A DNA stretch of 64,000 nucleotides from assembly GCA_041495285.1 (NCBI GenBank), contig JBGQCJ010000005.1, forward strand, positions 15,374 to 79,373, given 5' to 3'. Below, one piece after another: positions 15,054 to 64,000 of the stretch; positions within the stretch are counted from its first letter, which is position 1, and each line of letters begins with the position of its first letter. The notes under the pieces are model-generated. The model worked only from the letters and a program-made list of their open reading frames with translations, was not told the DNA's origin and searched no databases. Origin of the DNA: Verrucomicrobiia bacterium (GTDB lineage Bacteria; Verrucomicrobiota; Verrucomicrobiia; Palsa-1439). Both the position numbers and the translations under genes were made by a program.

Positions 15054-15129
15054 TGGCGGCCCCAACGGGATTCGAACCCGTGTACCCAGATTGAGAATCT
15101 GATGTCCTAGGCCTCTAGACGATGGGGCC
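15054..15129 (-). tRNA. tRNA-Glu(CTC): tRNA-Glu, anticodon CUC, CCA encoded
   Basis: Reverse complement folds as GGCCCCA|TC|GTC TAGAGGCCTAG GAC|A|TCAGA TTCTCAA TCTGG|GTACA|CGGGT TCGAATC CCCGT|TGGGGCC|G|CCA. The D-arm is identical in style to E. coli tRNA-Glu; T-loop is TTCGAAT; 7-bp acceptor stem. Confidence 0.85.
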
Positions 15130-50319: not shown

Positions 50320-52992
50320 CTAACTCGGCTTCGGCTTTTGCCCGAACAGATACATCTGCGGCGGCTCTTGAATTTCTGACTTCTGACTCCTGTCTCCTGA
50401 CTTCTGCTTCCGCTCCGCCAGCTTCGGCTGCCCTTCGGCAGACAGTTCGGCTTCTTCGAGGTTGGCGAGGACTTCCTTCGCGCGGGTGATGACTTCTTTC
50501 GGCAAGCCGGCAAGACGGGCGACCTGGATGCCGTAGCTCTTGTCGGTGCCGCCGGGGAGAATCTTGTGGAGGAAAATCACTTGATCGTGCCATTCGCGGA
50601 CGGCGACGTTGTAGTTCTTCACGCGCGGCAACGTCGCGGCAAGTTCGGTCAACTCGTGATAGTGCGTCGCGAACAGCGTTTTCGCGCCGACTGCGTTGTG
50701 GAGGTGTTCGGCCACCGCCCACGCGATGCTCAAGCCGTCGAACGTGCTCGTGCCGCGTCCAATCTCATCGAGTACAACCAGACTCTTCGGCGTCGCGTTG
50801 TTCAAGATGTTCGCCGTCTCGTTCATCTCGACCATGAACGTGCTTTGCCCGCGCGCCAAATCGTCGTTCGCGCCGACGCGCGTGAAGATGCGATCCACCA
50901 AACCGACAGTCGCGCTCTTTGCCGGGATGAACGAGCCGACCTGCGCCATCAACACCAGCAACGCAACTTGCCGGATATACGTGCTCTTGCCCGCCATGTT
51001 CGGGCCGGTAATGATGAGAATCTGTTGCTCCGTGTTATCGAGCAGCGTGTCGTTGGGCACGAACCGCTCCTCGATGAGGGTTTGTTCCAATACCGGATGC
51101 CGTCCGTCCGTAATCTCGATTCGATCGGCATCGTTCACAGCCGGTCGGCAATAATTCTGGTGCCGCGCCAGCTCTGCGAATCCCGCCAGCACATCGAGCG
51201 CGGCAATCGCGGACGCTGATTGCTGGACAGCAACGGACTCATCCAGCACCGCATCGCGCACTTGCTGGAAGATTTCGTACTCCAGCGCCGCCGCGCGTTC
51301 CTCGGCCCCGAGAATCCTGCCCTCCATCTCCTTCAACTCGGGCGTGTAAAAACGTTCGCCACCGGCAATGGTCTGCTTGCGGATGTAGTCGCTCGGCACT
51401 TTGTCGAGATTGGCCTTCGTCACTTCGATGTAATAGCCGAATACGGAATTGAACCGTACCTTGAGTGACGCAATGCCGGTCCGCTCGATCTCACGTTGCT
51501 GGAGCGCAGCAATCCATTCCTTGCCTTCGCGCGAGCCGCCCCGGAGTTCGTCGAGTTCCGCGCTGTAGCCGGCCTTGATGATTCCGCCTTCTTTCAACGC
51601 CAGCGGCGGCGCATCTTCAATGGCGCGCGCAACGAGATCGACGACGTCCGGAAGCTCGGTGATTTGCGAGACGAGAATTTGTAGGAGCGGCCTGCCGGCC
51701 GCGACCGGGTTGGCGACCGGTGGTTCGGAGGATCGCGGCCGGGAGGCCGCTCCTACGACGGCACCAAGTGCCTTCTTCAACTTCGGCAATGCCGCTAGAG
51801 ATTCCTTGAGCGCGACGAGATCACGAGCGTTACCGGAGCCGACGCTTAACCGGCCAAGCGTGCGTTCCATGTCGCGCACGTCGCGCAACCGTTCGCGAAA
51901 CTCGGCCAGCACGTGTGGCGCTTCACAAAACGACGCTATTACGCCTTGACGCTCCACGATCTTCTCCACGTCCTTCAACGGATGCGTCAGCCATTCGCGG
52001 AGCAACCGCGCGCCCATCGGTGTGAGCGTGCGATCCATGCAACCAATGAGTGTGTGTTTCCGGTCGGTGCGCGGTGATTCGAGCAATTCGAGATTTCGCT
52101 GCGTCACGGCGTCGAGCACCATGAAGTCAGCGATGCTGTACACTTGCAGCCCGTGGATGTGCGCGGTGTTGCGCCGGAGCGATTGTGTGAGGTAGTGCAA
52201 CGCGGCACCCGCCGCGCCGATGCCAACGGTCAGATTGGCGGCACCGAAGCCGTCGAGCGATTGCGTCTTGAAGTGGTCCCGCAGCGTGAAGAACGCCGTC
52301 TCGCGCTCGAACGTCCAACCGTCGTGCGGCGTCGCACTGATGCCGAGGGCTTTCGCTTCGTCGAACCATTCCGCCGGTACGATGATCTCTGCCGGTCGGA
52401 CGCGCGCCAATTCGTTTTGGAGTTGTTCGGCGGTCACCAACTCCGTGACCTTAAAGTCGCCGGTCGTGAGATCAACCAGCGCGAGGCCGAAGCGAGCCGA
52501 TTCGGGACGAGGTGTAGTAGCGCCTGTCTCAGGCGCTGAGGACATTGATTTGCCGCTGGGGACAGCGGCTACTACACCGGCAACCGGACAAATCGCCGCG
52601 AGGAAGTTGTTGCGTTCGGCGTGGAGGATATGCGCGTCGAAGTGCGTGCCGGGGCTGAGGATTTGCGTGACGTCGCGGTTGACGAGCTTGCCGGGTTTGG
52701 CTTCCTCGAGCTGATCGCACACGGCAACTTTGCGGCCGGCGCGAAGGATTTTGCCGATGTAGGTCTCGGCGGCGTGGTGCGGGATGCCGCACATCGGGAC
52801 GCCGTTGCGGTGTGTGAGCGCGAGATTGAGTAGTTGCGAGCCGGTCTTGGCGTCGTCGAAGAACATTTCGTAGAAATCGCCGAGCCGAAAGAGGAGCAGC
52901 GCGTCCGGTGGGATTTCGTGTTTGATGCGCCGGTACTGCTGCATCATTGGAGACAGTCCGCTGGCCGGCTTCTGGGTTTTGTCACTCGCCAT
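50320..52992 (-). CDS. mutS: DNA mismatch repair protein MutS
   Basis: 890 aa. N-terminal mismatch-binding MMQQY..IK...LLFRLGDFYEMF. Walker A ITGPNMAGKSTYIRQ. Walker B/ABC region. Confidence 0.9.
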   Translation of the reverse strand: MASDKTQKPASGLSPMMQQYRRIKHEIPPDALLLFRLGDFYEMFFDDAKTGSQLLNLALTHRNGVPMCGIPHHAAETYIGKILRAGRKVAVCDQLEEAKPGKLVNRDVTQILSPGTHFDAHILHAERNNFLAAICPVAGVVAAVPSGKSMSSAPETGATTPRPESARFGLALVDLTTGDFKVTELVTAEQLQNELARVRPAEIIVPAEWFDEAKALGISATPHDGWTFERETAFFTLRDHFKTQSLDGFGAANLTVGIGAAGAALHYLTQSLRRNTAHIHGLQVYSIADFMVLDAVTQRNLELLESPRTDRKHTLIGCMDRTLTPMGARLLREWLTHPLKDVEKIVERQGVIASFCEAPHVLAEFRERLRDVRDMERTLGRLSVGSGNARDLVALKESLAALPKLKKALGAVVGAASRPRSSEPPVANPVAAGRPLLQILVSQITELPDVVDLVARAIEDAPPLALKEGGIIKAGYSAELDELRGGSREGKEWIAALQQREIERTGIASLKVRFNSVFGYYIEVTKANLDKVPSDYIRKQTIAGGERFYTPELKEMEGRILGAEERAAALEYEIFQQVRDAVLDESVAVQQSASAIAALDVLAGFAELARHQNYCRPAVNDADRIEITDGRHPVLEQTLIEERFVPNDTLLDNTEQQILIITGPNMAGKSTYIRQVALLVLMAQVGSFIPAKSATVGLVDRIFTRVGANDDLARGQSTFMVEMNETANILNNATPKSLVVLDEIGRGTSTFDGLSIAWAVAEHLHNAVGAKTLFATHYHELTELAATLPRVKNYNVAVREWHDQVIFLHKILPGGTDKSYGIQVARLAGLPKEVITRAKEVLANLEEAELSAEGQPKLAERKQKSGDRSQKSEIQEPPQMYLFGQKPKPS

Positions 52993-53376: not shown

Positions 53377-53775
53377 TCAGCGTGCGAAAAGCTCTTTGAG
53401 CGCGGTGCGAAGTTGTTCCATCTCGAAGGGTTTTTCGAGCAGCGTGTTGCCGGTGCGATAAATGAAGTCGGCCAGCCCGGCGCGGCGGCCGGGATTGCCG
53501 GTGATGAAGATGAATTTCTCGGCCAGATAGGGATATTGCCGGATGACCTCGTTATAGAGCGACTCGCCGTCCACGCGGGGCATCATCAGGTCGCAGATCA
53601 CCGCCTCGTAATCCGCGCCGCGCAACATATCCATGGCTTCCATCCCGTTGGCGGCGATGTCCGCGATGCAATTTTCGTAGGTGAGCACTTCGGAAAGCAA
53701 TTCGGCAAGCTGGTAGTCGTCCTCGACCACCAACACGCGATGGACGTACTCGACGGGACGCTTGGACTCGGTCAC
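53377..53775 (-). CDS. Stand-alone response-regulator receiver domain (CheY-like)
   Basis: VLVVEDDYQLAELLSEVL...AVICDLMMPRVDG...FIFITG... ; GTG start. Confidence 0.75.
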   Translation of the reverse strand: MTESKRPVEYVHRVLVVEDDYQLAELLSEVLTYENCIADIAANGMEAMDMLRGADYEAVICDLMMPRVDGESLYNEVIRQYPYLAEKFIFITGNPGRRAGLADFIYRTGNTLLEKPFEMEQLRTALKELFAR

Positions 53776-53796: not shown

Positions 53797-53840
53797 TGGA
53801 GCCGGCGATCAGACTTGAACTGATAACCTGCTGATTACAA
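53797..53840 (-). other. tRNA 3'-half-like sequence (T-arm, acceptor 3' strand, CCA), candidate att/direct-repeat remnant at the element boundary
   Basis: Minus strand reads ATCAG-TTCAAGT-CTGAT-CGCCGGC-T-CCA: a perfect 5-bp T-stem, T-loop of TTCRANT type, 7-nt acceptor strand, discriminator, CCA. No matching 5' acceptor, D-arm or anticodon arm upstream. Confidence 0.35.
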
Positions 53841-53950
53841 ATTGCACTAGGTGTGTTTCAGCCCGTGTCAGCTTGCGCTGCATTGTGCACGCCATCATGC
53901 TCCACTGCAAGGGCTTTTCTGTTTCATGCTCGCTGGTGAAACACCGCGAA

Positions 53951-55213
53951 TCATCCCGTCACCGGAAGCGCCGTGTGACTAGCCTTCGCGTCTACTTCGA
54001 CCGCCTTCCCGGTCACTGTCAGCCGAATTCGCCGGGCCTGCGCCAACAGATGGTCGGGACGCACGTCACCGTAGGTGTGCGCGATCAGGGCGGGGCCGGA
54101 CTTATCACCAAGCAGCGCCGCAATCTCGCTGTCTGTCAGCCCGGATTCTCGCGCTTGCGTGACGTAGAAACTTCGCAACCCGTGCGGGGTGACGTGCCCG
54201 ATCTTCAATTTCCGGCAAGCCGCCGTCAGCCGATGCCGGACGGCAGCCGCATCGCGGGGTTTGCTGGGGTCAAAGGGTGACGCGAACAGCAACGGGCTTG
54301 TTGCCCGTTCCTGCATAGCGCTCAGCAAGGCTTCCAGTTCAGGCGTGATTGCCACCCACGGCGTCACGCCCTTCTTCTCGCGTATCACATTCACAAGTCC
54401 TTCGGCCAGATTCACCATGCCCCACCGCAGCGGCAGCGCCTCGCCAATCCGCAAGCCGCTGTAGGCGAGAAATGCCACAAGGTCAGCAATCGCAATTTCG
54501 TTACGCCGGCGCAGCCAGCCGATGATTGCCTGCAAGCCTTCGGGTGTCGGCGCAACTTCCCGGCAGTGCCGCACGTCGGCGGCGCTAGTGTACGTGGTGC
54601 GGTCGCGCATCGGATTGGATTTCAACAGGTCGCGCCGGACGGCAAAGCGCAACACGTTGCCGAAGACGCCAAGCTCTAGGTCAACCGCGCGGTCGCCGCC
54701 CGTCGTGCGTTTGGTCCTTTCGTGCCCGCGCAGCTTATAGGTGACAACGTAACCGCCGCTCTTGCGCCAGGCGTGGTAACGGTCGCAATCGGCGTTCGTC
54801 ACCGACGCGGCAGGGTGCTCGCCGAAGTAGGCCAGCAATGGGCGCAGATGCCGCCGCTCGTTGTAGATCGTGCGGGGCAATTTCCGCCCCTTCGTCTTGC
54901 GTGGGTAGCCTGCCGTTTCGTATTCCGTTGCCAGTTCGCGCACCGTCACGCGCCCGCGCTGCAAGACAACGCCTTCGGGTTCAATCCCGTTTCGTATCAG
55001 CCAATGGTCACGCTTCCACTTCCGCAACCATTTGCGGGCGTCACTAGCATTGTCGGTTTCAGTGCTCTTCCAAGTCAACTTGCGATTGTCGCGCACGCGG
55101 GCGTAAATCTTCTTCCCTTCATAACGGAAGTGCTTCCCGCTTTCGTCCACGCCCTCGCGGACTTGCCGCGCCAAGCACGGGCCAATTATCTCGAAGCGTG
55201 TTTTGCTGGTCAT
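53951..55213 (-). CDS. Tyrosine-type site-specific integrase
   Basis: C-terminal catalytic domain with R...HGLRSFYVTQ...(H-x-x-R)...Y (LIAHTYG) tetrad. N-terminal SAM-like/arm-binding region. Confidence 0.85.
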   Translation of the reverse strand: MTSKTRFEIIGPCLARQVREGVDESGKHFRYEGKKIYARVRDNRKLTWKSTETDNASDARKWLRKWKRDHWLIRNGIEPEGVVLQRGRVTVRELATEYETAGYPRKTKGRKLPRTIYNERRHLRPLLAYFGEHPAASVTNADCDRYHAWRKSGGYVVTYKLRGHERTKRTTGGDRAVDLELGVFGNVLRFAVRRDLLKSNPMRDRTTYTSAADVRHCREVAPTPEGLQAIIGWLRRRNEIAIADLVAFLAYSGLRIGEALPLRWGMVNLAEGLVNVIREKKGVTPWVAITPELEALLSAMQERATSPLLFASPFDPSKPRDAAAVRHRLTAACRKLKIGHVTPHGLRSFYVTQARESGLTDSEIAALLGDKSGPALIAHTYGDVRPDHLLAQARRIRLTVTGKAVEVDAKASHTALPVTG

Positions 55214-55374
55214 GGCAGTTTCTCCAAGTAACGGGCGATCAGTTGGTCAATCACCCAACTTCTTTGCCGGTCCTTCTTGTCGCAGTACGTCTCCATCTTC
55301 GCTGCTGATTCGGGCGACACCGTTATGGACCATTTCACAGTTACGCCTTTGGGACTATTTGTTGGTCTGACCAT
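55210..55374 (-). CDS. Possible small ribbon-helix-helix (CopG-like) protein, stop overlapping the integrase start
   Basis: 54-aa ORF ...VKWSITVSPESAAKMETYCDKKDRQRSWVIDQLIARYLEKLP* has a beta-strand then two helices, typical of RHH. ATGA overlap with int. Its 5' end overlaps the recombinase 3' end by about 20 nt. Confidence 0.3.
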   Translation of the reverse strand: MVRPTNSPKGVTVKWSITVSPESAAKMETYCDKKDRQRSWVIDQLIARYLEKLP

Positions 55375-56095
55375 TGCGTATCTCCTTCTTGGTTGTGGCG
55401 CTCAAGGGATTTGTCCGCGCCAGGATTCTTAGAACTTGGATCGGTGTCCATTCAGTATGCCCGCGCTTCGTTGTCGCGCCGATCTTTTGCAGCTTGGCTG
55501 CGATCTTACGCAACGAAAAGCCGCGCTGACGCTGCTTACGGACAATGCCAATTACGCGTTGCTCGGTGTCGTTAGGCACCAGTTTTCCATCCACCGCCAC
55601 AAATCCAAACGGCACATCACCGCCGAGCTTCTCGCTGCGCTGCCGCTTGTATTGCATCGCACGCAGTGTTTTCTCGCTGATTTCCTTTCGGTAAACTTCA
55701 GCGAGGAGTGCCTTCAGCGTCAAATCCATCGTGCCGCTCACGGTCTTGTTTTCAACGAAGCCTTTATCCAGCGTGAAGAGCCGCGCCTTCGCCGGGCCGC
55801 AGACATCCTCCAAAAAAATCAGGGTATCCTTCTGCGAGCGGGACAATCGCGACAAGTCCGCAACAACGACGATGTTTGCCGCCTTCGCTTTCACCATCGC
55901 AACGAGCGCAGCAAATCCAGGCCGCTTGCTGGCGGGTTTTCCGCCACTGACGCCTTCGTCGCGCAACACCGCAATCAGTTCCCAGCTTTGCCGCGCGGCC
56001 TCGGCACAAATCAGCGCTTCTTGCCGTTGCAAGCTCTCGCCGTCTTTGACCTGCTCCTCTGTGCTTACGCGAATGTAACCGACTGACTTTATCAT
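55355..56095 (-). CDS. Serine recombinase (resolvase/invertase family) with C-terminal HTH
   Basis: SVGYIRVSTEEQ...GESLQRQ has the catalytic Ser motif. About 246 aa with C-terminal DNA-binding region. Confidence 0.85.
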   Translation of the reverse strand: MIKSVGYIRVSTEEQVKDGESLQRQEALICAEAARQSWELIAVLRDEGVSGGKPASKRPGFAALVAMVKAKAANIVVVADLSRLSRSQKDTLIFLEDVCGPAKARLFTLDKGFVENKTVSGTMDLTLKALLAEVYRKEISEKTLRAMQYKRQRSEKLGGDVPFGFVAVDGKLVPNDTEQRVIGIVRKQRQRGFSLRKIAAKLQKIGATTKRGHTEWTPIQVLRILARTNPLSATTKKEIRNGQTNK

Positions 56096-56199
56096 CTTGA
56101 CCCCTAATGAGGGGTTTTATACTACTAATCCTACCAAATGGCAAGCGGATGCTGTTACAGATGGTGCCAAGTGTTACGGATCTCACCGCAAATTCCACG

Positions 56200-56523
56200 T
56201 CAGTGGGCGCTTCCGCCGCAGGTCGGCAAGGCTTGGGATTCATCGGTTACTCCTCCTTCTCCGTTTCGATGACCGCACATCGCCGGTGTCTCAGTGGCCG
56301 GTGCAGTGGGCTCAGTCAAATCGCACTCGCAGTTTGCTTCGGTGTGCCGTTCGAGGAATCGCAGCCAATCGGATTCCTTTACGCGGACAATGCCGCCGAC
56401 CCGCACAACGCGCAAACCGCGCTCCTTTCGCCAACGATAAACAGTAGCGCGACTTGCCTTGCCAACCTCGCGGATCTCATCCAATGTGTAGAGTCTTTCA
56501 ATTGGTTCCGGGTTTGTGGTCAT
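56200..56523 (-). CDS. AlpA/excisionase-like HTH DNA-binding protein
   Basis: LYTLDEIREVGKASRATVYRWRKERGLRVVRVGGIVRVKESDWLRFLE is an HTH_17/Xis-like domain. The C-terminal 40 aa of the ORF are low-complexity and may not be translated. Confidence 0.55.
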   Translation of the reverse strand: MTTNPEPIERLYTLDEIREVGKASRATVYRWRKERGLRVVRVGGIVRVKESDWLRFLERHTEANCECDLTEPTAPATETPAMCGHRNGEGGVTDESQALPTCGGSAH

Positions 56524-56670
56524 TGTTGTCCTCGCATTGGCGCCTTCGATCGCATTTTTTACCGCTCAGTATCGTTGCCACCAGTAAAGACGACTGAAAC
56601 AGCTTTGTTGCCGGGGGGTCACCCTTTGCCAGCGGGTAGTGCCGTGCAGGATTTGAAGCGGGTGCGGTGG

Positions 56671-57505
56671 TCATGGCTTCGTCGAGCCGGCCAGCAGTTT
56701 CACCAGCCGGGTGCGTTCCTTCGTCTCCAATTGCCTTACCCGGGCCAACGCCTCCAAGTCCATGCGTTGCTCGACCTCGCTTCGGATCCGATGCCGCAAC
56801 ACGTCCACCGGGAGCGCGTCCAGTTCCACGCAGCGGTCGCCATGCTCGGCGATAAAAGCGGCGCGGCGCGTATCGGTGCGTTTGGTCGGGTCGGGCGGCA
56901 AGTGGTAGCGCTCGATGTCCTCGGCGGTCAGGGCGCACTTGACAATTTCTGGACAAAGCCTCGAAAAACGCCAGCCGCTCGCGCAGACTGCGCACCATGT
57001 CCTCGCCGCTGGGGTCGAAGTCGCCGAAGTAGAGCACGCTCGCATTGTCGCCACCGCCATAGCGATCAGCGGCATTGTGGATACTCGCCCAACCATCGTA
57101 ACCACGGCCCACGTTGAGCGTGACGCCATACGATTCGAGCACGTCCTCGAAAATGCCGGACAGTGCGTCCTTCTCGAGCCAGACCTCGACGTAACCCGGC
57201 TGGCTTGCCCACACGTCGCGACGGTATGCCTGACGCGCGGTTTCGCTGAAGTCAGCTAGGTCAGCCCACATGCTGACGGTTCGGGGTCGGCGCAACCGGT
57301 CTTCGATCCAAGCCCACGGGATCGTTCCGTCCTGGCGGGCGCGCACGAGCACATTACTGACTGCCTGATATTGGCTCCGGTTGTTTTCTATGACTTGTCT
57401 GGAAACGAGTTGGTAGTACACCTGCCGCACCGTCATCGGATGGTGTTCAGACAAAACCTCGACGGCGACTTCCAGCAACTGCTGCGTTTTCGCATGCCTA
57501 CCCAT
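56671..57505 (-). pseudogene. Topo VI-A/Spo11-like 'mini-A' protein (winged-helix with YY, toprim with DxD), interrupted by a frameshift
   Basis: AAGGAG SD then ATG 57505. MTVRQVYYQLV (R-x-V-Y-Y, as in the Spo11/TopVIA catalytic Tyr region), YVEVWLEKDALSGIF (toprim E), LYFGDFDPSGEDM (toprim DxDPxG). The frame breaks near a T5 run at about 56960-56975. A second frame continues ...PEIVKCALTAEDIERYHL...LAGSTKP to stop 56671. Confidence 0.5.
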
Positions 57506-57897
57506 CAGACCGCAGTCTCCTTGCCGGCAAGCCGTAGGACATACGCGCAAGAGTCACGGCCCTTGTCGTTGCCGCTCTGTTCACTAGTGCTCGATCTCAC
57601 ACCCGGTAAAGACGACAGCGGCCCATATTTGCACCGAGATCGTGAAAGATTTCTTTGGTGGCCCGACATCTTCCGGCTGCTGTCCGCGATGCTGTTCAAC
57701 GAATCGGGCGTCATGGTGAAATCGGAGGCAGTTGCTGCGCATGCGGGGTGCCGTCACTGTGTCCTACTTAACCGCATCCTCTGGCGAGAAGCTGGCCGAC
57801 GGTAAGCAAAAGGCCGTGGCGAGCTACCCATCGAGTTCACGGCCGCAGGACTTATCAAATCAAGTCGTGTTTCTGTCGATCCTTGGCCATCCACGCC

Positions 57898-58509
57898 TCA
57901 GTTCAGTTGATTCGGCCACTCGGGACAGAAGAAAGGCGTCAGAAACCTTGCTTTGTCAAACGGAACCCGAAACGGCAAGTTCGCCCCAGCGAATGGGACG
58001 TTGAACACTCGTCGTTCGGACTGCATGGTTTCAACCCAAAACTGTCCGTCCTCTATGTGCATGATACAGACGCACTCGCTGAGGAACTCCTGACAAAAGC
58101 GTTCCGGTGAGGCGAACTTCGTCTCGACTTCGAGCAAATCGGGAGCACCATCAGCCCTTAAGAGTCCTTCCACTTTTTTCAGCCCTCCCGCCTCCTGTAG
58201 ATCCCACAGCCTCTCCAAGAGCTCGTCACTTGCGGCAAAAAAACTTGTCGCGTCGGGAACCAGATGAGCGATCGTGTCGGGCTGACAGAACCGCAAGAAC
58301 TCCACGGCTCTCCGTCTTCTTGGTTCTTCATGGTTGTAGACGGCGGATACGATCCAGATTTGACCACGGTGTGGGGCTGTCCGTGCGGTCTTTCTGTATG
58401 GTCTTGGCGCGAGATTTTGCAGCACCAGCCGAAACTCCTCGGCTAATCGCATGTGAACTGTTCCGAGCTTGATCACTTTATCACTGTTATGGCGTGTGCT
58501 TCTTAACAT
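57898..58509 (-). CDS. Hypothetical protein (element cargo)
   Basis: 203-aa ORF with slightly lower GC. No recognisable motif; the start could be at internal Met-20. Confidence 0.4.
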   Translation of the reverse strand: MLRSTRHNSDKVIKLGTVHMRLAEEFRLVLQNLAPRPYRKTARTAPHRGQIWIVSAVYNHEEPRRRRAVEFLRFCQPDTIAHLVPDATSFFAASDELLERLWDLQEAGGLKKVEGLLRADGAPDLLEVETKFASPERFCQEFLSECVCIMHIEDGQFWVETMQSERRVFNVPFAGANLPFRVPFDKARFLTPFFCPEWPNQLN

Positions 58510-58530
58510 TGGTTACTCTCCTATATGGAT

Positions 58531-59472
58531 CTAGTTGTTCTTTCTAATGGACTCCACTCCCTGCTTCTCATCGAGTAGGTGACGGCTGATGAAGTCAACG
58601 AGGCTGTTGAGCGTCCTCCGAACCTTCTTGGACAGTGGCGCGCCCTTGGCGACGAGATCGGCAATGCGCTTGACGGTGGTCTCGATCATGTTCACCTCTG
58701 TCTCCAGCGTAGACAACGGCGTGGCGTCCCGTACATCCGCCTCCGTGGGCGTAGCCGCGCTCAACTCGCGGCGCTCGCACTCGCCCGCCTTGCGATGCAG
58801 CTCCACCAGAGGACGCAGTGCCTCCGCCCACCCGTGTAGCAACACGGTGTCCTTGCAGCCCTCAAGGTCCCAGTAGGTCGGGAGTTTGTCAGTGAACCGC
58901 CGGATGACTACCGCCCCTGAGACCTTGTCCACGCCTCCGTCGATGTCTTCGACCTTCAGGCGGGTCGGCGTCCCGTAATCCTTGAGTTCCCAGTTGTAGA
59001 TCACCTTGCCCCGCTTGATGGACCGGCGCAACGCAGCGCGCGTCAACTTGTGCTTCTCCGCCTCGTTGAGCCAACGATCTTGCTCCTCGGGCTCAAGGTG
59101 CGCGACCTCGCGGTGATGCTCCCACGACAGTTTGTCGCGCCGGCGCGACGGATCCACGCTCCCCGCTACCCAGTTTAAGTCGCGCAAAGTGGCCTGCCGA
59201 TATTCCATCGCCGCTGGAAGTTTTGAGTACTCCTCGCCCCATTCATGCTCGCCGTACCGTAACCAATCGCCGATCCACCACCTCAACGCGCCGCCGGCAC
59301 GGCAGAGCTTCGCACCAATGTCCTGCCACTCCTTTTCGGTGATCTTTCTGGTGACGAGCAACGAGGTCTTGGTGAACTCGATCCCAGGCAGGATCAAACC
59401 ACTCTCGAGTTTCATCGGCTCATTCCCGCAGTTTACCGCGGTGGTTTCCGCATTCTGTAACTTGTTCTTCAT
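58531..59472 (-). CDS. Hypothetical protein with W-W-I-G-D-W-L / L-S-W-E-H-H motif (DUF3102-like, phage/plasmid-associated)
   Basis: 313 aa. ALRWWIGDWLRYGEHEWGEEY ... LSWEHHREVAHL resembles DUF3102-type proteins; this is recalled pattern only. Confidence 0.4.
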   Translation of the reverse strand: MKNKLQNAETTAVNCGNEPMKLESGLILPGIEFTKTSLLVTRKITEKEWQDIGAKLCRAGGALRWWIGDWLRYGEHEWGEEYSKLPAAMEYRQATLRDLNWVAGSVDPSRRRDKLSWEHHREVAHLEPEEQDRWLNEAEKHKLTRAALRRSIKRGKVIYNWELKDYGTPTRLKVEDIDGGVDKVSGAVVIRRFTDKLPTYWDLEGCKDTVLLHGWAEALRPLVELHRKAGECERRELSAATPTEADVRDATPLSTLETEVNMIETTVKRIADLVAKGAPLSKKVRRTLNSLVDFISRHLLDEKQGVESIRKNN

Positions 59473-59906
59473 ATTCGTTCCTCCTTTTCACCCTGTAAAG
59501 ACGCCGCGCGGGGGGTCTGTTGCAGAGGGGTGCGGCGGTTTTCTTTGATAGCCCGATCCCGTGCGGCTCCCGTTTCGCCTCGGTCGGAGACACCTCGTCG
59601 CTCTTGACCTGCTCGAACAGCTCCGGCTTCTCCGCCGCCCACCCCGCCAGGAACTTGGCCTGGCCACTATCCTTCTTGCTGATGTCGAGTTTGTCGAGCG
59701 TGGGCGGCGCGTCTGGTTGGGGTTCCTTCCGGGAACTCCGAGTGCCTCCGCCCTTGCGTCCCCGCGCTCCAGCTTGCTTCGGCTTCTTCCTCAGGAACTC
59801 GCCTATGACCCGCACGCCTCGATCTCGATGGCGTGGGCCTACCTTGGACTTCTTAGCCGCCTTACTGCCGAGGACATCGGGATGATTTGACAAAAGCATC
59901 GGTAAA

Positions 59907-61172
59907 TTGATAGCTCTCGACCTGCTGGAAACAGCGGGCATGGCACGGAAGCGATCCAAACTGACGATGAGCAGGACGCAACTGACTGAAGTGCGGCAAC
60001 GGCTGCGTCAGGCGGAGCAACAAGAGCGTGAGGCGCGTAAGCGGGGTGAAACGAGTGTGGCGAACGTCGCATGGGAACATGTGCAACGTCTGAAGGCTGT
60101 GCTAATGGCCACGAGCGGTAAACACACTTTGGACGAGATCGCCTTAGAGTGTGGGTGTGCGCGCTCGACGGCGCACATCTGGCTGGAAAAGTTCACTCGC
60201 GTAGGGCTGCCCGCCCTTTTGCTCAGCAGCGCGACGGGCAGACCGAGCCGCATCGCCGATCCGACCGTGCAGGCGGAACTGCGGGCGGGCTTGCGGGAAG
60301 GCGAGTTGTACACGGCCGACGAAGTGGTAGCGTGGTTGCGCTTGACTTACGGCATCGAGTGCCCGGCTCAATCTTTGTACTACTGGATGAGAAAACTCGA
60401 CCCAGCGAGTCTGCCGGTTGACCAGACCATACTCGGTGACGCGATAGAGGTCATGGCTCCGTGGCTCGACCAGTGTGTGGATGCGGTCATCTCAGACTTT
60501 CCCGCCGGGTTGACGAACGCCCCGCACGACAAGTCGCCGCCCCTCGAGCGCCTCTGGCCGCTGCTTCACCGGCTCAGTCGGGGCGTCGTCATTACGACTG
60601 CGAGCCAACCGTTCGCCTCGCTGTGTGTCGCCAGCAATCTGAAGAATTTCAGGCATGACTGGGTAATGCGGAAGAACCGCGGGTCGAACTTCGCCTGCAC
60701 GGTGCGCCAGCCGATGCGGGACCATGAGCATGTCTTGGTTTTCTGCGCCAAAACCAATTGGACATTTAACCCGCAACGCGAGCAACGCCGAGGCAGTGGC
60801 ATGCACATGGCGGGACGAATGACGACCTGGATGTCGCGGAGCACCAACTACCGAGAGAGCGGCGACGAGTTCAAGCCTCGCACCGGCATCGTCACCGAAG
60901 ATCGCGTGCCTTCATCCGTGCAGGACATCCAGGTCGAGACCGGTCTTCACCCCCAGCAGAAGAGTTTGAATTTTTTTCGCTATTTGGTGCGGACGTACAG
61001 TAATCCGGGAGACATTATTCTCGACCCATACTGCGGTTCAGCTACGACCTGCCGCGCCGCGCAACTTGAAGGCCGACACTTCGTAGGAATAGAGATTGAC
61101 CCCGAGCGTTTCCGTGTTGCCCAGAAACGTGTGGCTGAACCATTCCTGCCTGACTATTCCGGACGCAGATAA
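59907..61172 (+). CDS. DNA methyltransferase (N6-adenine / N4-cytosine, PF01555-like, permuted beta-class) with N-terminal HTH
   Basis: C-terminal motif I IILDPYCGSATTCRAAQLEGRHFVGIEID. Upstream candidate motif IV region DAVISDFPAG (degenerate DPPY). N-terminal ALECGCARSTAHIWLEKF is HTH-like. No adjacent restriction endonuclease gene. Confidence 0.65.
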   Translation: MIALDLLETAGMARKRSKLTMSRTQLTEVRQRLRQAEQQEREARKRGETSVANVAWEHVQRLKAVLMATSGKHTLDEIALECGCARSTAHIWLEKFTRVGLPALLLSSATGRPSRIADPTVQAELRAGLREGELYTADEVVAWLRLTYGIECPAQSLYYWMRKLDPASLPVDQTILGDAIEVMAPWLDQCVDAVISDFPAGLTNAPHDKSPPLERLWPLLHRLSRGVVITTASQPFASLCVASNLKNFRHDWVMRKNRGSNFACTVRQPMRDHEHVLVFCAKTNWTFNPQREQRRGSGMHMAGRMTTWMSRSTNYRESGDEFKPRTGIVTEDRVPSSVQDIQVETGLHPQQKSLNFFRYLVRTYSNPGDIILDPYCGSATTCRAAQLEGRHFVGIEIDPERFRVAQKRVAEPFLPDYSGRR

Positions 61173-61536
61173 TCGGTCGCGAGGCGCTCTCAGGCCGGGC
61201 TCGACTGTCTCAAAAAAAGCTGCGGTGCCAAGCGAAACCCAACTGTTGACGCGCCGCGGGTGTCCACGGCGGTATTCAGTGGGTCACGCGTCGTGGCGGT
61301 CTCCCGTTGCCGTCGCCGCTCGCCCCTCAGCCTGCCAGCGCGCAGTCGTGCTCTTTTCGGGCAGCCACTCCGAAACAAAACGCAGCAGCCAAGCCTTGAC
61401 CTCTGCCTTGTGCGTAGTCAGGTCGGCGCGTTCCTCGTCAGATACTAGCGCCGGCCAGACGCAGAGCTTGTCCCGATCACGGTCGTACCAGACCGACACG
61501 CCGCGCTCGCGGAGCTTGCCGATCAGAAAGCCAGCG

Positions 61537-63384
61537 TCAAATTTCGAGGGTTTCAGCATAGGCTTTTGCGGTTGGTTGCGGGGTTTGCGGGCTTTCATCC
61601 AAGGATTTGGCAAAAGTCCCTATGTAATCTTCTTGTGAGGATTTTCCTGAAATCGTTGCGGCAAACCCCGCAAACCCCGCAGTAGATCCGCTGCGGATGC
61701 GAAAGTTAGCAATACCGTTCCGATTCTTCTCTCGTGTTGCGTCAAAGAGGCTTTCTATATGAAGCCAGAGCGATGTTAGTCGTTTGCCCAATCGTTTCGA
61801 CGACCAGAGCCGCTTGCCATGATTTCCCTTGGCATCATCTCCGAAGTCGGCGTCGTATTTGGCAAACTTGTCCAACAGTTCCGCCGCCGTCCCGGCAAAG
61901 CCGTCAGGCTCGTTCGTCATCATGTCCAGTAAAGCCTTGCCGACGGGGTCGTTTTCCAAACAGAACCGGGACTTGTCAGCTTCGGCGGCTGACATGGCGG
62001 CGATAGCTTCGACTTCGGCGTTCATTGCCCTGCCAAGTTTGATCGCCAGCGTGCCGAAGTCCGGATGCCGCAAGTTGAGTCCCTTCGGCGTGGGCAGTTC
62101 ATCCGCCAGTGCCGCCGACAACGTCCGGGCAACCCACGATAGCCCGGCGGAGCGAGCCGCCGAAATTTCGGCGAGCAGCGCAGCATCATCTGTTTCGCCC
62201 ATTCGTCTATTCATGCGAACAAGTAAGAGCCTGTCCGCTGTTGCAGAGTCAGAGGCGAACAAGGGGTTAGCCGTGGTGACGGCAAGCCATGCCTTCGGCA
62301 GTAACTTGGTTTGTTGATCGTTGGTGTAGAGCTGCCGCTCTTGTTTCCCGCCGCCCGTTGCCGCCGCAGACAACGCTGACGGCAACCATTTAATCCAATT
62401 ATCTACGTTGTCGGGGATCACCAAGCCGCCGCCATTGATCGCGACCCAAAAGTCGTGTTGGCTCTTGTCCGTTTTGTCCAGTTCGGCCGGTTCGCTGGGC
62501 AGTCCAAACAGTCGGGCAATGCCGATGGCTGTCTTGGTCTTACCGCTGCGTATTTCGCCCGAAAAAATGATCGGCGGTTTACAGTTCGGATTTGTCGGCA
62601 AGCTCGTTACCCATAGCTTCAACAGCAACTTCCCGTGCGGATCGGCATAAGCGGCGTCCCGAAATAACCGGCAGGACTCAAACGGATCTTGCGGCTCGGT
62701 CAATTCCCATGTTGGCAATGTCATGCCTACTGGGAACAAAACACCGTCAGTCCCGTTGTCCACCGCCTCGACGTTGGACGCCGTGATCTTCGCACTCTGC
62801 CCGTCACCGTTGGATAGGTAAATCGCCTTGTCTCGGCTCGCCCAATAGGTTTCTGGGATGATGCCCGTGCCGTGCAACGCCGCAACCTCGACAGCGGCGG
62901 CAATGTACTGGAAAACCGGGTTGCCCATGTTGATCGCCGTAAGTTGAGCAACGTCGGATAGAAACTCGTCTGATTGGACTCGCAGCAACCGCTTGGTTTG
63001 ACTGTCGAAAAACATGGCGGTTGCAAAGTCCCGGTGTTGGGAATGAAAGTAGAACAGCCCCCGCTGGTTCAGAAATTCGACGGCAACATTTGCAACGGCT
63101 TCGTGCTTTTCCGTTGCTGGCAGGCGGGTTGACAGAATGCCGACAATCGCCGCCCGTAGCTCCTCGACGTTGGTAGTCGCCCCGGTGTTGATAGTCAGTC
63201 GAGCTTCACGCTTGCGGCTGTGTGCGTCAGGTTCAAAGTGTTTGCGAAACTCTCGCCAGCGCTTACCGCTGCAACCATCATGGTGACATTTGAAGCCAAG
63301 TCTGCCATCTGCGTTTTCAAAAACTGCAACCTCACCATGAACTCCATGCTCCGGGTTAAACGGGCACGATGCTAATTCGTACAC
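61537..63384 (-). CDS. Phage/plasmid P4-type primase-helicase (zinc-binding N-domain plus SF3-like P-loop)
   Basis: CPFNPEHGVHGEVAVFENADGRLGFKCHHDGC is a zinc-binding motif. Walker A-like FSGEIRSGKTKTAIGIA. Overall about 615 aa. GTG start; upstream frame open without ATG. Confidence 0.7.
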   Translation of the reverse strand: MYELASCPFNPEHGVHGEVAVFENADGRLGFKCHHDGCSGKRWREFRKHFEPDAHSRKREARLTINTGATTNVEELRAAIVGILSTRLPATEKHEAVANVAVEFLNQRGLFYFHSQHRDFATAMFFDSQTKRLLRVQSDEFLSDVAQLTAINMGNPVFQYIAAAVEVAALHGTGIIPETYWASRDKAIYLSNGDGQSAKITASNVEAVDNGTDGVLFPVGMTLPTWELTEPQDPFESCRLFRDAAYADPHGKLLLKLWVTSLPTNPNCKPPIIFSGEIRSGKTKTAIGIARLFGLPSEPAELDKTDKSQHDFWVAINGGGLVIPDNVDNWIKWLPSALSAAATGGGKQERQLYTNDQQTKLLPKAWLAVTTANPLFASDSATADRLLLVRMNRRMGETDDAALLAEISAARSAGLSWVARTLSAALADELPTPKGLNLRHPDFGTLAIKLGRAMNAEVEAIAAMSAAEADKSRFCLENDPVGKALLDMMTNEPDGFAGTAAELLDKFAKYDADFGDDAKGNHGKRLWSSKRLGKRLTSLWLHIESLFDATREKNRNGIANFRIRSGSTAGFAGFAATISGKSSQEDYIGTFAKSLDESPQTPQPTAKAYAETLEI

Positions 63385-63467
63385 GGTCCCGCCGCCCTTA
63401 ACCTTTGTGTTTTTGATCTCGATGTTGTGCCGCCTAAAAAATCCAGAAAGGTCAAAGTTTTCACTGA

Positions 63468-64000
63468 CGGGCCGAATCTATCTGCATTTTTGGCCCTAGC
63501 ACAATTAGCCCGCCGGCGATGGGCTTGTGCTGGGAACACGGCGTCGCCGTCAATTTCCTCTCTGAGAACGGTTACTTCCAAGCGCGCGTGACGGGCGTCG
63601 CCGATACCAGCGTGACATTGCGCCGCACCCAATTCCGCGCCGCTGATGATCCCGTGAAATCCGCCGCCATTGCCCGTCAGATCGTCGCGGGCAAAATCCA
63701 GAACGCGCGCAACAGTCTTTTGCGCGCGGGGCGCGAGACCGGGAACGCCGACGAACAAGCCAGGGTCGCCGCCGCTACCGACGCGCTCGCCCGCAGTCTG
63801 CGCGAGTTGGAGACGATCCGCGACCTCGAAGCTGTGCGCGGCAGCGAAGGCATAGCGGCGCAGATTTACTTTGCCGTGTTCACATTGTTGCTCAAGCAAC
63901 AGCGCGACGAATTTGTGTTTACCACGCGCACCCGTCGTCCGCCGCGCGACCGGATCAATTGCCTGCTCTCCTTTCTCTACGCCTTGGTGCGGCATGATTG
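63468..64000 (+). CDS. cas1: CRISPR-associated Cas1 integrase, 5'-truncated and running off the window
   Basis: Collinear with type I-C Cas1 from about residue 60: ESICIFGPSTISPPAMGLCWEHGVAVNFLSENGYFQARVTG...VTLRRTQF...AVRGSEGIAAQIYFAVFTLLLKQ...FTTRTRRPPRDRINCLLSFLYALV. An in-frame stop at 63465-63467 sits immediately upstream. None of the three upstream frames encodes the N-terminal domain. Confidence 0.85.

Follow-up and report, generated by a model that had tools for sequence, protein, structure and literature searches.

Three kinds of described system come closest to the locus considered here. The first is type I-C Cas1, represented in NCBIfam by the family TIGR03640 (Cas1c) and structurally by the Cas4-Cas1-Cas2 complexes of B. 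halodurans (8D3L, 8D3M, 8D3P, and 8D3Q). The second comprises orphan arrays and degraded CRISPR loci, such as CRISPR2 of E. faecalis and the I-F arrays of E. coli and Salmonella that are found without cas genes and are discussed in PMC3630108. Genomic islands inserted at tRNA genes, with P4-type tyrosine integrases and primase-helicase genes, form the third. The window, that is, the whole 64-kb stretch of verrucomicrobial DNA that was analysed, ends within a type I-C-like cas1 gene which lies directly against the remnant of an integrative island (Table 1).

Table 1: Features of the window that bear on the cas1 remnant and on its neighbourhood (window coordinates).
Feature	Position	Strand	Remarks
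mutS (chromosomal backbone)	50320..52992	-	NF003810, E 0
Response-regulator gene, chromosomal, flanking the tRNA site	53377..53775	-	PF00072 in L001
46-nt copy of the 3′ part of tRNA-Thr(TGT), anticodon loop to CCA	53797..53842	-	att scar, no 5′ half
Integrative genomic island remnant, ~9.6 kb	53843..63465		Left end, att fragment; right end, junction
Tyrosine integrase adjoining the att fragment	53951..55213	-	PF00589, E 1.5e-13; phrog_1 integrase, E 9.5e-38
Serine recombinase (resolvase/invertase-type)	55355..56095	-	PF00239, E 7e-29
Excisionase-like HTH_17 protein (Xis)	56200..56523	-	PF12728, E 3.2e-07; phrog_66
Frameshift-broken phrog_6247 island gene ("DNA topoisomerase" annotation)	56498..57550	-	C-terminal part in ORF 56671-57129
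DNA methyltransferase with N-terminal HTH	59907..61172	+	PF01555, E 3.9e-21; HTH_29/23
5′-truncated primase-helicase-like replication gene of the island	61537..63465	-	~275 N-terminal codons gone
In-frame TGA closing the cas1 frame upstream	63465..63467	+
Junction, bases assignable to neither truncated gene	63466..63473		8 bases
cas1 remnant (type I-C-like)	63474..64000	+	Codons ~60-234 of a gene of ~361 codons

The truncation of cas1 at its 5′ end is genuine and unusual; among 80 related loci from species-representative genomes, the Cas1 N-terminus is complete in 79. As the initial annotation had described, the frame is preceded directly by an in-frame TGA. It is open from 63468, reads RAESICIFGPSTISPPAMGLCW... 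(in its longer form RAESICIFGPSTISPPAMGLCWEHG...) up to the end of the window, and offers its earliest in-frame ATG at 63519. The gene runs past the edge of the window and reaches a normal C-terminus at window-equivalent ~64382 on the source contig (L001/P0001). Residues 3-177 of the fragment match positions 40-214 of the 340 positions of TIGR03640 (E 7.8e-57), and positions 35-201 of the 283 positions of Pfam PF01867 (Cas_Cas1) are covered with an E-value of 1.4e-50 and a score of 172.5 bits (cut-off 22.3). The score for TIGR00287 is 126.4 (cut-off 71.7). TIGR03640 is the top-scoring Cas1 subfamily; with only part of the protein to match, its 193 bits stay under the 385 required of full-length members. 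The profile alignments proposed earlier as a check on the truncation point therefore confirm it.

In full-length Cas1 relatives (68-81% identical), 58-59 residues precede the motif ESIC(V/I)FG, and these are missing from the window's gene. A start of homology at about position 60, as first claimed, is right for this clade. The fragment is 81% identical to residues 60-234 of the Cas1 of locus L010, the closest complete relative. When the alignment is carried through the nearest relative, the first homologous residue corresponds to E42 of the I-C Cas1 of B. halodurans (8D3L), while 8D3L residue 35 aligns to residue 53 of that relative. A complete N-terminal beta-strand domain with its start codon is accordingly not present in the window's cas1. 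The missing N-terminus was searched by tblastn with the N-termini of seven relatives in all frames of the 64 kb, and no trace of it was found, so that the domain is not encoded in a shifted frame upstream either. The conserved motifs of the C-terminal catalytic domain are kept. The RGSEG motif lies inside the window and GFLHADRPNRPSLALDLMEEF in the continuation (P0001); both occupy invariant or near-invariant columns among the relatives, and both are presumed to be catalytic. The gene is a Cas1c-like pseudogene.

The absence of interference genes noted at the outset was borne out by tblastn over the 64 kb with all Cas proteins of L010 (Cas3, Cas4, Cas7, a Cas8-like protein, and a putative Cas5), in which the sole match was to Cas1 residues 60-234. 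Interference genes and cas4 are thus missing from the 64-kb window, which contains no complete type I-C(-like) system, and no copies of the CRISPR repeat were found in it. The nearest relatives of the window's cas1 sit in complete operons. That of L010 (2851-11213) consists of a putative cas5 (272 aa), a gene for a 764-aa protein, cas7, cas3, cas4, cas1, and cas2; the 764-aa protein is unannotated and is presumed to be the large subunit, and cas3 encodes HD plus helicase. The position of cas3 between cas7 and cas4 is a noncanonical order for type I-C, despite a Cas1 that scores best as Cas1c.

The sequence beyond the window was reached via P0001, a 287-aa protein called from the ATG at 63519, which led to a 77-kb contig (JGI 3300053058); the Logan assembly of run SRR29604912 served as a second source. 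On the source contig the remainder of cas1 is followed by a cas2 of 96 aa (PF09827), a leader of ~185 nt, and at least 22 identical 37-nt repeats (GTCGCCGCGCTCGCAAGGGCGCGGCGCGGATTGAAAC, ending in ATTGAAAC) separated by spacers of 33-35 nt. The cas1 remnant therefore has an adjacent, intact cas2 and CRISPR array, which answers the earlier suggestion to look downstream for both. The array region (L001 12484-12904) corresponds to window-equivalent ~66000-66422, and the source contig ends inside it. The last partial spacer of the JGI contig starts with the same 11 nt as spacer 17 (AGGGGTCTTGC), and a duplicated spacer may have broken the assembly at this point.

The region immediately upstream of cas1 had been described as about 80 bp of low-GC, noncoding-looking DNA preceding a primase gene on the other strand. 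The first part of this description stands, since the GC content of 63385-63467 is indeed lower (0.46); the second does not, as the segment is the in-frame continuation of the minus-strand replication gene and hence a coding remnant. The neighbouring gene is likewise where it was placed, and what was missed is that it has itself lost its 5′ end. Its 615-aa minus-strand ORF, named a primase in the initial annotation, matched no Pfam or NCBIfam profile. Its nearest homologues measure 946-963 aa, and its residue 1 corresponds to residues 294-300 of P0122 (949 aa, 64% identical) and P0125 (963 aa). The frame remains open upstream of the nominal GTG at 63384, up to 63477, and its translation there, SENFDLSGFFRRHNIEIKNTKVKGGGTVYELASCPF, aligns with the homologues; by tblastn, homology to P0124 residues 278-298 extends to 63465. 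The retained C-terminal module carries a zinc finger and a P-loop. At the position of the missing N-terminal part, other members of the family have Toprim, zf-CHC2, Prim-Pol, or VirE_N primase domains, and tblastn of the 64-kb window with the N-terminal 270 residues of the homologues found no match.

Two genes, both truncated at their 5′ ends, therefore meet head to head and point away from each other. Replication-gene homology stops at 63465 and Cas1 homology begins at 63474. Since the neighbouring 80 bp belongs to the replication gene, the truncation is two-sided, with no more than 8 bases in between. No promoter-like or terminator consensus was found at the junction, and no repeat longer than 8 nt is present where the two genes join. 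The junction is the product of one illegitimate-recombination event.

An assembly chimera, in which two unrelated contigs were falsely joined at 63466-63473, was raised as a possibility in the initial annotation and deserves attention because the data are metagenomic. It is very improbable. The 77-kb JGI contig and the independently built Logan contig of SRR29604912 show the identical junction, with 1 mismatch in 11,089 nt, although these two assemblies may share a sample. Moreover, the bases common to the two sides or unassigned between them number at most 8, far under any assembler k-mer, so that no repeat able to cause a false join exists. The sole difference between the window and the JGI contig is an A/C at 60446, inside the methyltransferase gene.

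The mobile element and mutS that had been noted upstream of cas1 proved to be an island remnant inserted beside the chromosomal backbone. The element is a tRNA-Thr island that has kept its left junction and lost its right part. At its left end, the att segment, an exact 46-nt copy, lies 108 nt from the integrase gene, so that an integrase stands directly beside a copy of a tRNA 3′ end. ARAGORN called no tRNA at 53797-53842, and the only tRNA of the window is a tRNA-Glu at 15054. When compared base by base, identity to tRNA-Thr starts in the anticodon loop and ends at CCA. Of the 22 metagenome contigs that contain a 41-mer of the segment, 18 have it as the exact 3′ part of a complete tRNA-Thr(TGT), and the other 4 carry a fragment as the window does. 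Integrases 47-61% identical to that of the window adjoin the same tRNA fragment in four loci (L097, L092, L107, and L113). In two related islands (L097/L099 and L103/L092), with integrases 59-61% identical, the fragment lies beside the integrase gene and an intact tRNA stands at the far end. As these islands end at an intact tRNA and that of the window ends inside a gene at 63465, the latter lacks its far end. Neither a second copy of the att core nor an intact tRNA marking the other end of the island was found in the 64-kb window. The att core had no match in IMG/VR, and an Rfam scan of 52-64 kb gave no relevant RNA family.

In relatives whose MutS is 73-79% identical, exactly this place holds mutS, the syntenic response-regulator gene, and an intact tRNA-Thr; a conserved nnr-like gene (YjeF_N plus Carb_kinase) and a gene for a protein of 333 aa come next, and cas genes are absent. 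Relative to this conserved backbone, the DNA that carries the CRISPR locus is therefore an insertion. The tRNA-Thr(TGT) gene beside mutS and the response-regulator gene serves as a hot spot of integration, with a core of ~45 nt flanking different islands in several metagenome contigs.

Within the island, decay has also proceeded independently of the junction event, as a second gene is frameshifted: phrog_6247 profile positions 24-200 are found in one frame and positions 204-288 in the other. Several ORFs without assigned function sit between this gene and the methyltransferase. In the methyltransferase ORF (59907-61172), the N-terminus is an IS630-like HTH, and the N6_N4_Mtase profile is represented by its C-terminal two thirds only. 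The island remnant is probably unable to excise as a unit or to replicate.

The scar is likely to have arisen by a single illegitimate-recombination event, most probably a deletion, in acquired DNA at the tRNA-Thr(TGT) hot spot beside mutS. An integrative island carrying a tyrosine integrase, a serine recombinase, Xis, a methylase, and a primase-helicase-like gene would have entered the tRNA-Thr gene, and beyond it, on the same side, would have stood a CRISPR-Cas locus resembling type I-C. A deletion with endpoints at about codon 275 of the replication gene and about codon 59 of cas1 would then have removed the N-terminal domain of the replication gene together with the distal part of the island, any DNA that separated the island from the CRISPR-Cas locus, all interference genes with cas4, and the 5′ end of cas1. 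It would have spared cas1 from codon 60 onward, the whole of cas2, the leader, and the CRISPR array. We infer a deletion in preference to other rearrangements because divergent genes truncated at one point have the geometry of a simple deletion. Among illegitimate events, simple deletions are the most frequent. Since the rest of cas1, cas2, and all repeats are undamaged, the one seen here probably took place recently.

A deletion has a consequence for the tRNA. If an intact tRNA-Thr(TGT) had stood between the island and cas1, a probably essential tRNA would have been lost with it. The deletion model therefore needs the CRISPR locus to have lain between the island and the tRNA, as tandem acquired DNA, or a second copy of the tRNA to exist. 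A tRNA located beyond the array, as expected for tandem acquired DNA, fits the absence of cas genes at the site in relatives.

The loss of the tRNA would be avoided by an inversion or another two-break rearrangement, in which the cas operon originally faced the opposite way and the breakpoints fell in the replication gene and in cas1, so that the 3′ part of cas1, cas2, and the array came to lie beside the island. The interference genes, the 5′ end of cas1, the tRNA-Thr that relatives keep at the site, and the 5′ part of the replication gene would in that case be preserved at another place in the genome; interference might still function, and adaptation alone would be lost. Such an event agrees equally well with the head-to-head arrangement at the junction. 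As the contig ends in the array, the side on which an intact tRNA-Thr and nnr are expected lies out of view, and from the sequence at hand a deletion and an inversion look alike. Illegitimate inversions are, however, rarer than deletions in general. In addition, a search with the N-terminal 271 residues of P0122, together with two contig look-ups, gave no fragment from the source samples, the two best JGI/Logan candidates being from other samples; this is a weak negative, because the search (P0122 residues 1-271) also missed P0122 itself and its close relatives P0123-P0125. An inversion is considered unlikely.

An empty site or the ancestral arrangement was looked for among related loci. A strain-specific 30-mer had no match in metagenome_contigs. 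Loci collected on the basis of Cas1 share no synteny with the window, those collected on the basis of the tRNA recovered the backbone synteny with no cas genes, and the searches found no close relative with an intact island-CRISPR arrangement. Among the Cas1-based loci, several other damaged cas1 genes were observed. In L083 (8640-8860), an internal deletion fuses a cas4 fragment to cas1 at "HLES" (~residue 56), and in L003 (1480-1700) another joins a cas5 fragment to cas1 at ~residue 42; both loci are verrucomicrobial and have toxin-antitoxin genes just upstream of the fusion. The cas1 genes of L004 (1321-2226) and L005 (386-1394) carry a frameshift or an internal deletion close to the 5′ end, and a gene of the 23S_rRNA_IVP family lies between cas4 or cas5 and cas1. 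A recurrent truncation at the same codon was considered and rejected: P0076/L004 and P0031/L005 are frameshifted genes whose N-termini are present, and L003 and L083 represent different internal deletions (cas5-cas1 and cas4-cas1).

The fact that the mobile element directly adjoins cas1, and that cas1 is also broken near the same region in L083 and L003, could suggest a targeted insertion, in which cas1 is the specific integration site of the island and its disruption an anti-CRISPR strategy, or in which cas1-cas2 and the array are a mini-module carried as cargo of the island. Such an origin is hardly credible. The integrase has its site in the tRNA-Thr gene, at a distance of 9.6 kb; the border with cas1 falls within a truncated gene of the island, hence this is not the end of the element; the Cas1 N-terminus is absent from the other side of the island; and in the other broken loci the fusion partner is a cas4 or cas5 fragment, not the island of the window. 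The alternatives offered in the initial annotation, a broken adaptation module and a solo or mini cas1-cas2 locus, can be separated on similar grounds. The former holds, with cas1 deprived of its start and N-terminal part and with the interference genes absent from the window. The latter is not supported, as the gene has no start, no N-terminal domain, and no promoter-like site, and its nearest relatives sit in complete operons.

Within the preferred deletion, a cause may be speculated upon. A spacer of the array may have matched the newly integrated island, and the cell may have survived degradation by Cas3 only by losing, in one deletion, the half of the island with the protospacer, the interference genes, and the 5′ end of cas1. 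This autoimmunity scar would be a subhypothesis of the deletion and not an exclusive alternative to it. In its favour, one deletion takes part of the island together with the interference genes. When a type I system targets the chromosome, selection is reported to favour both the loss of cas genes and island-remodelling deletions (PMC3630108), and self-targeting spacers are reported to be strongly associated with prophages (PMC7708048). Conversely, the latter study also describes genetic deterioration of CRISPR-Cas as rare in genomes with self-targeting spacers. The 21 visible spacers were compared with the window and its island, with related elements, and with 120 replication-protein homologues; there was no match in DNA, and none beyond shuffled controls in peptides. 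For spacers 1 and 2, IMG/VR likewise contains no exact match. The putative target would itself be in the deleted DNA. Autoimmunity is thus a rather improbable cause. A weaker companion idea is that cas1 codons 42-60 form a recurrent breakpoint in the verrucomicrobial clade (the window, L083, and L003); the clustering is not counted as evidence, because it is expected from ascertainment with a query that starts at codon 60. The two ideas together carry only a small likelihood.

The N-terminal domain of Cas1 forms the Cas1 dimer and contacts Cas2, as is known from Cas1-Cas2 structures. Given a cas1 without its native start, without an upstream promoter-like site, and without its first N-terminal strands, spacer acquisition should be abolished. 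Since Cas5, Cas7, Cas8, and Cas3 are gone from the locus, the array would stand as an orphan, unless it is used in trans by a system encoded elsewhere in the genome. The large array is therefore to be treated as orphan, and the genome is not to be counted as having a working I-C system. With regard to annotation, the public 287-aa "Cas1" and the 615-aa (or 492-aa) "hypothetical protein" are fragments of genes. The locus also provides a natural and cleanly resolved case of CRISPR-Cas loss beside an integrated element, with the breakpoint placed within 8 bases and the tRNA-Thr hot spot documented in relatives. It is an ordinary broken CRISPR locus of a kind already known, not a new kind of system, and it opens no new question.

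When compared with the described systems, the window's cas1 resembles type I-C Cas1 in several respects. Its best-scoring subfamily is Cas1c, its 81%-identical relative aligns to 8D3L over residues 35-341, it keeps the conserved RG-EG and FLH...LDLMEE motifs, and downstream of it lie cas2 and an array of 37-nt repeats ending in ATTGAAAC. It differs from the solved proteins in having no equivalent of residues 1-41 (59 residues in the clade) and in finding its first start codon at the equivalent of about residue 57; the operon of L010 departs further from type I-C by the place of cas3 between cas7 and cas4. A casposon or a stand-alone Cas1 was rejected, as cas2 and the array follow directly, the top profile is Cas1c, and no long inverted repeats bracket the region. 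Like the orphan arrays and degraded loci of E. faecalis, E. coli, and Salmonella, the locus shows an intact-looking array that outlives its interference genes, with a mobile element beside the scar. Unlike them, it retains cas2 and most of cas1, its breakpoint can be placed within 8 bases, and among the 21 visible spacers no cas-targeting or island-targeting one was found. The element, in turn, shares with tRNA islands the integrase beside a tRNA 3′ copy, the Xis, methylase, and replication proteins, and an att core that related islands use in other metagenomes, whereas it lacks the intact tRNA junction at the far end and the N-terminal domain of its replication gene and has one frameshifted gene. 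A Cas1c-like pseudogene, a degraded type I-C-like locus with an orphan array, and the remnant of a tRNA island are all well-known kinds.
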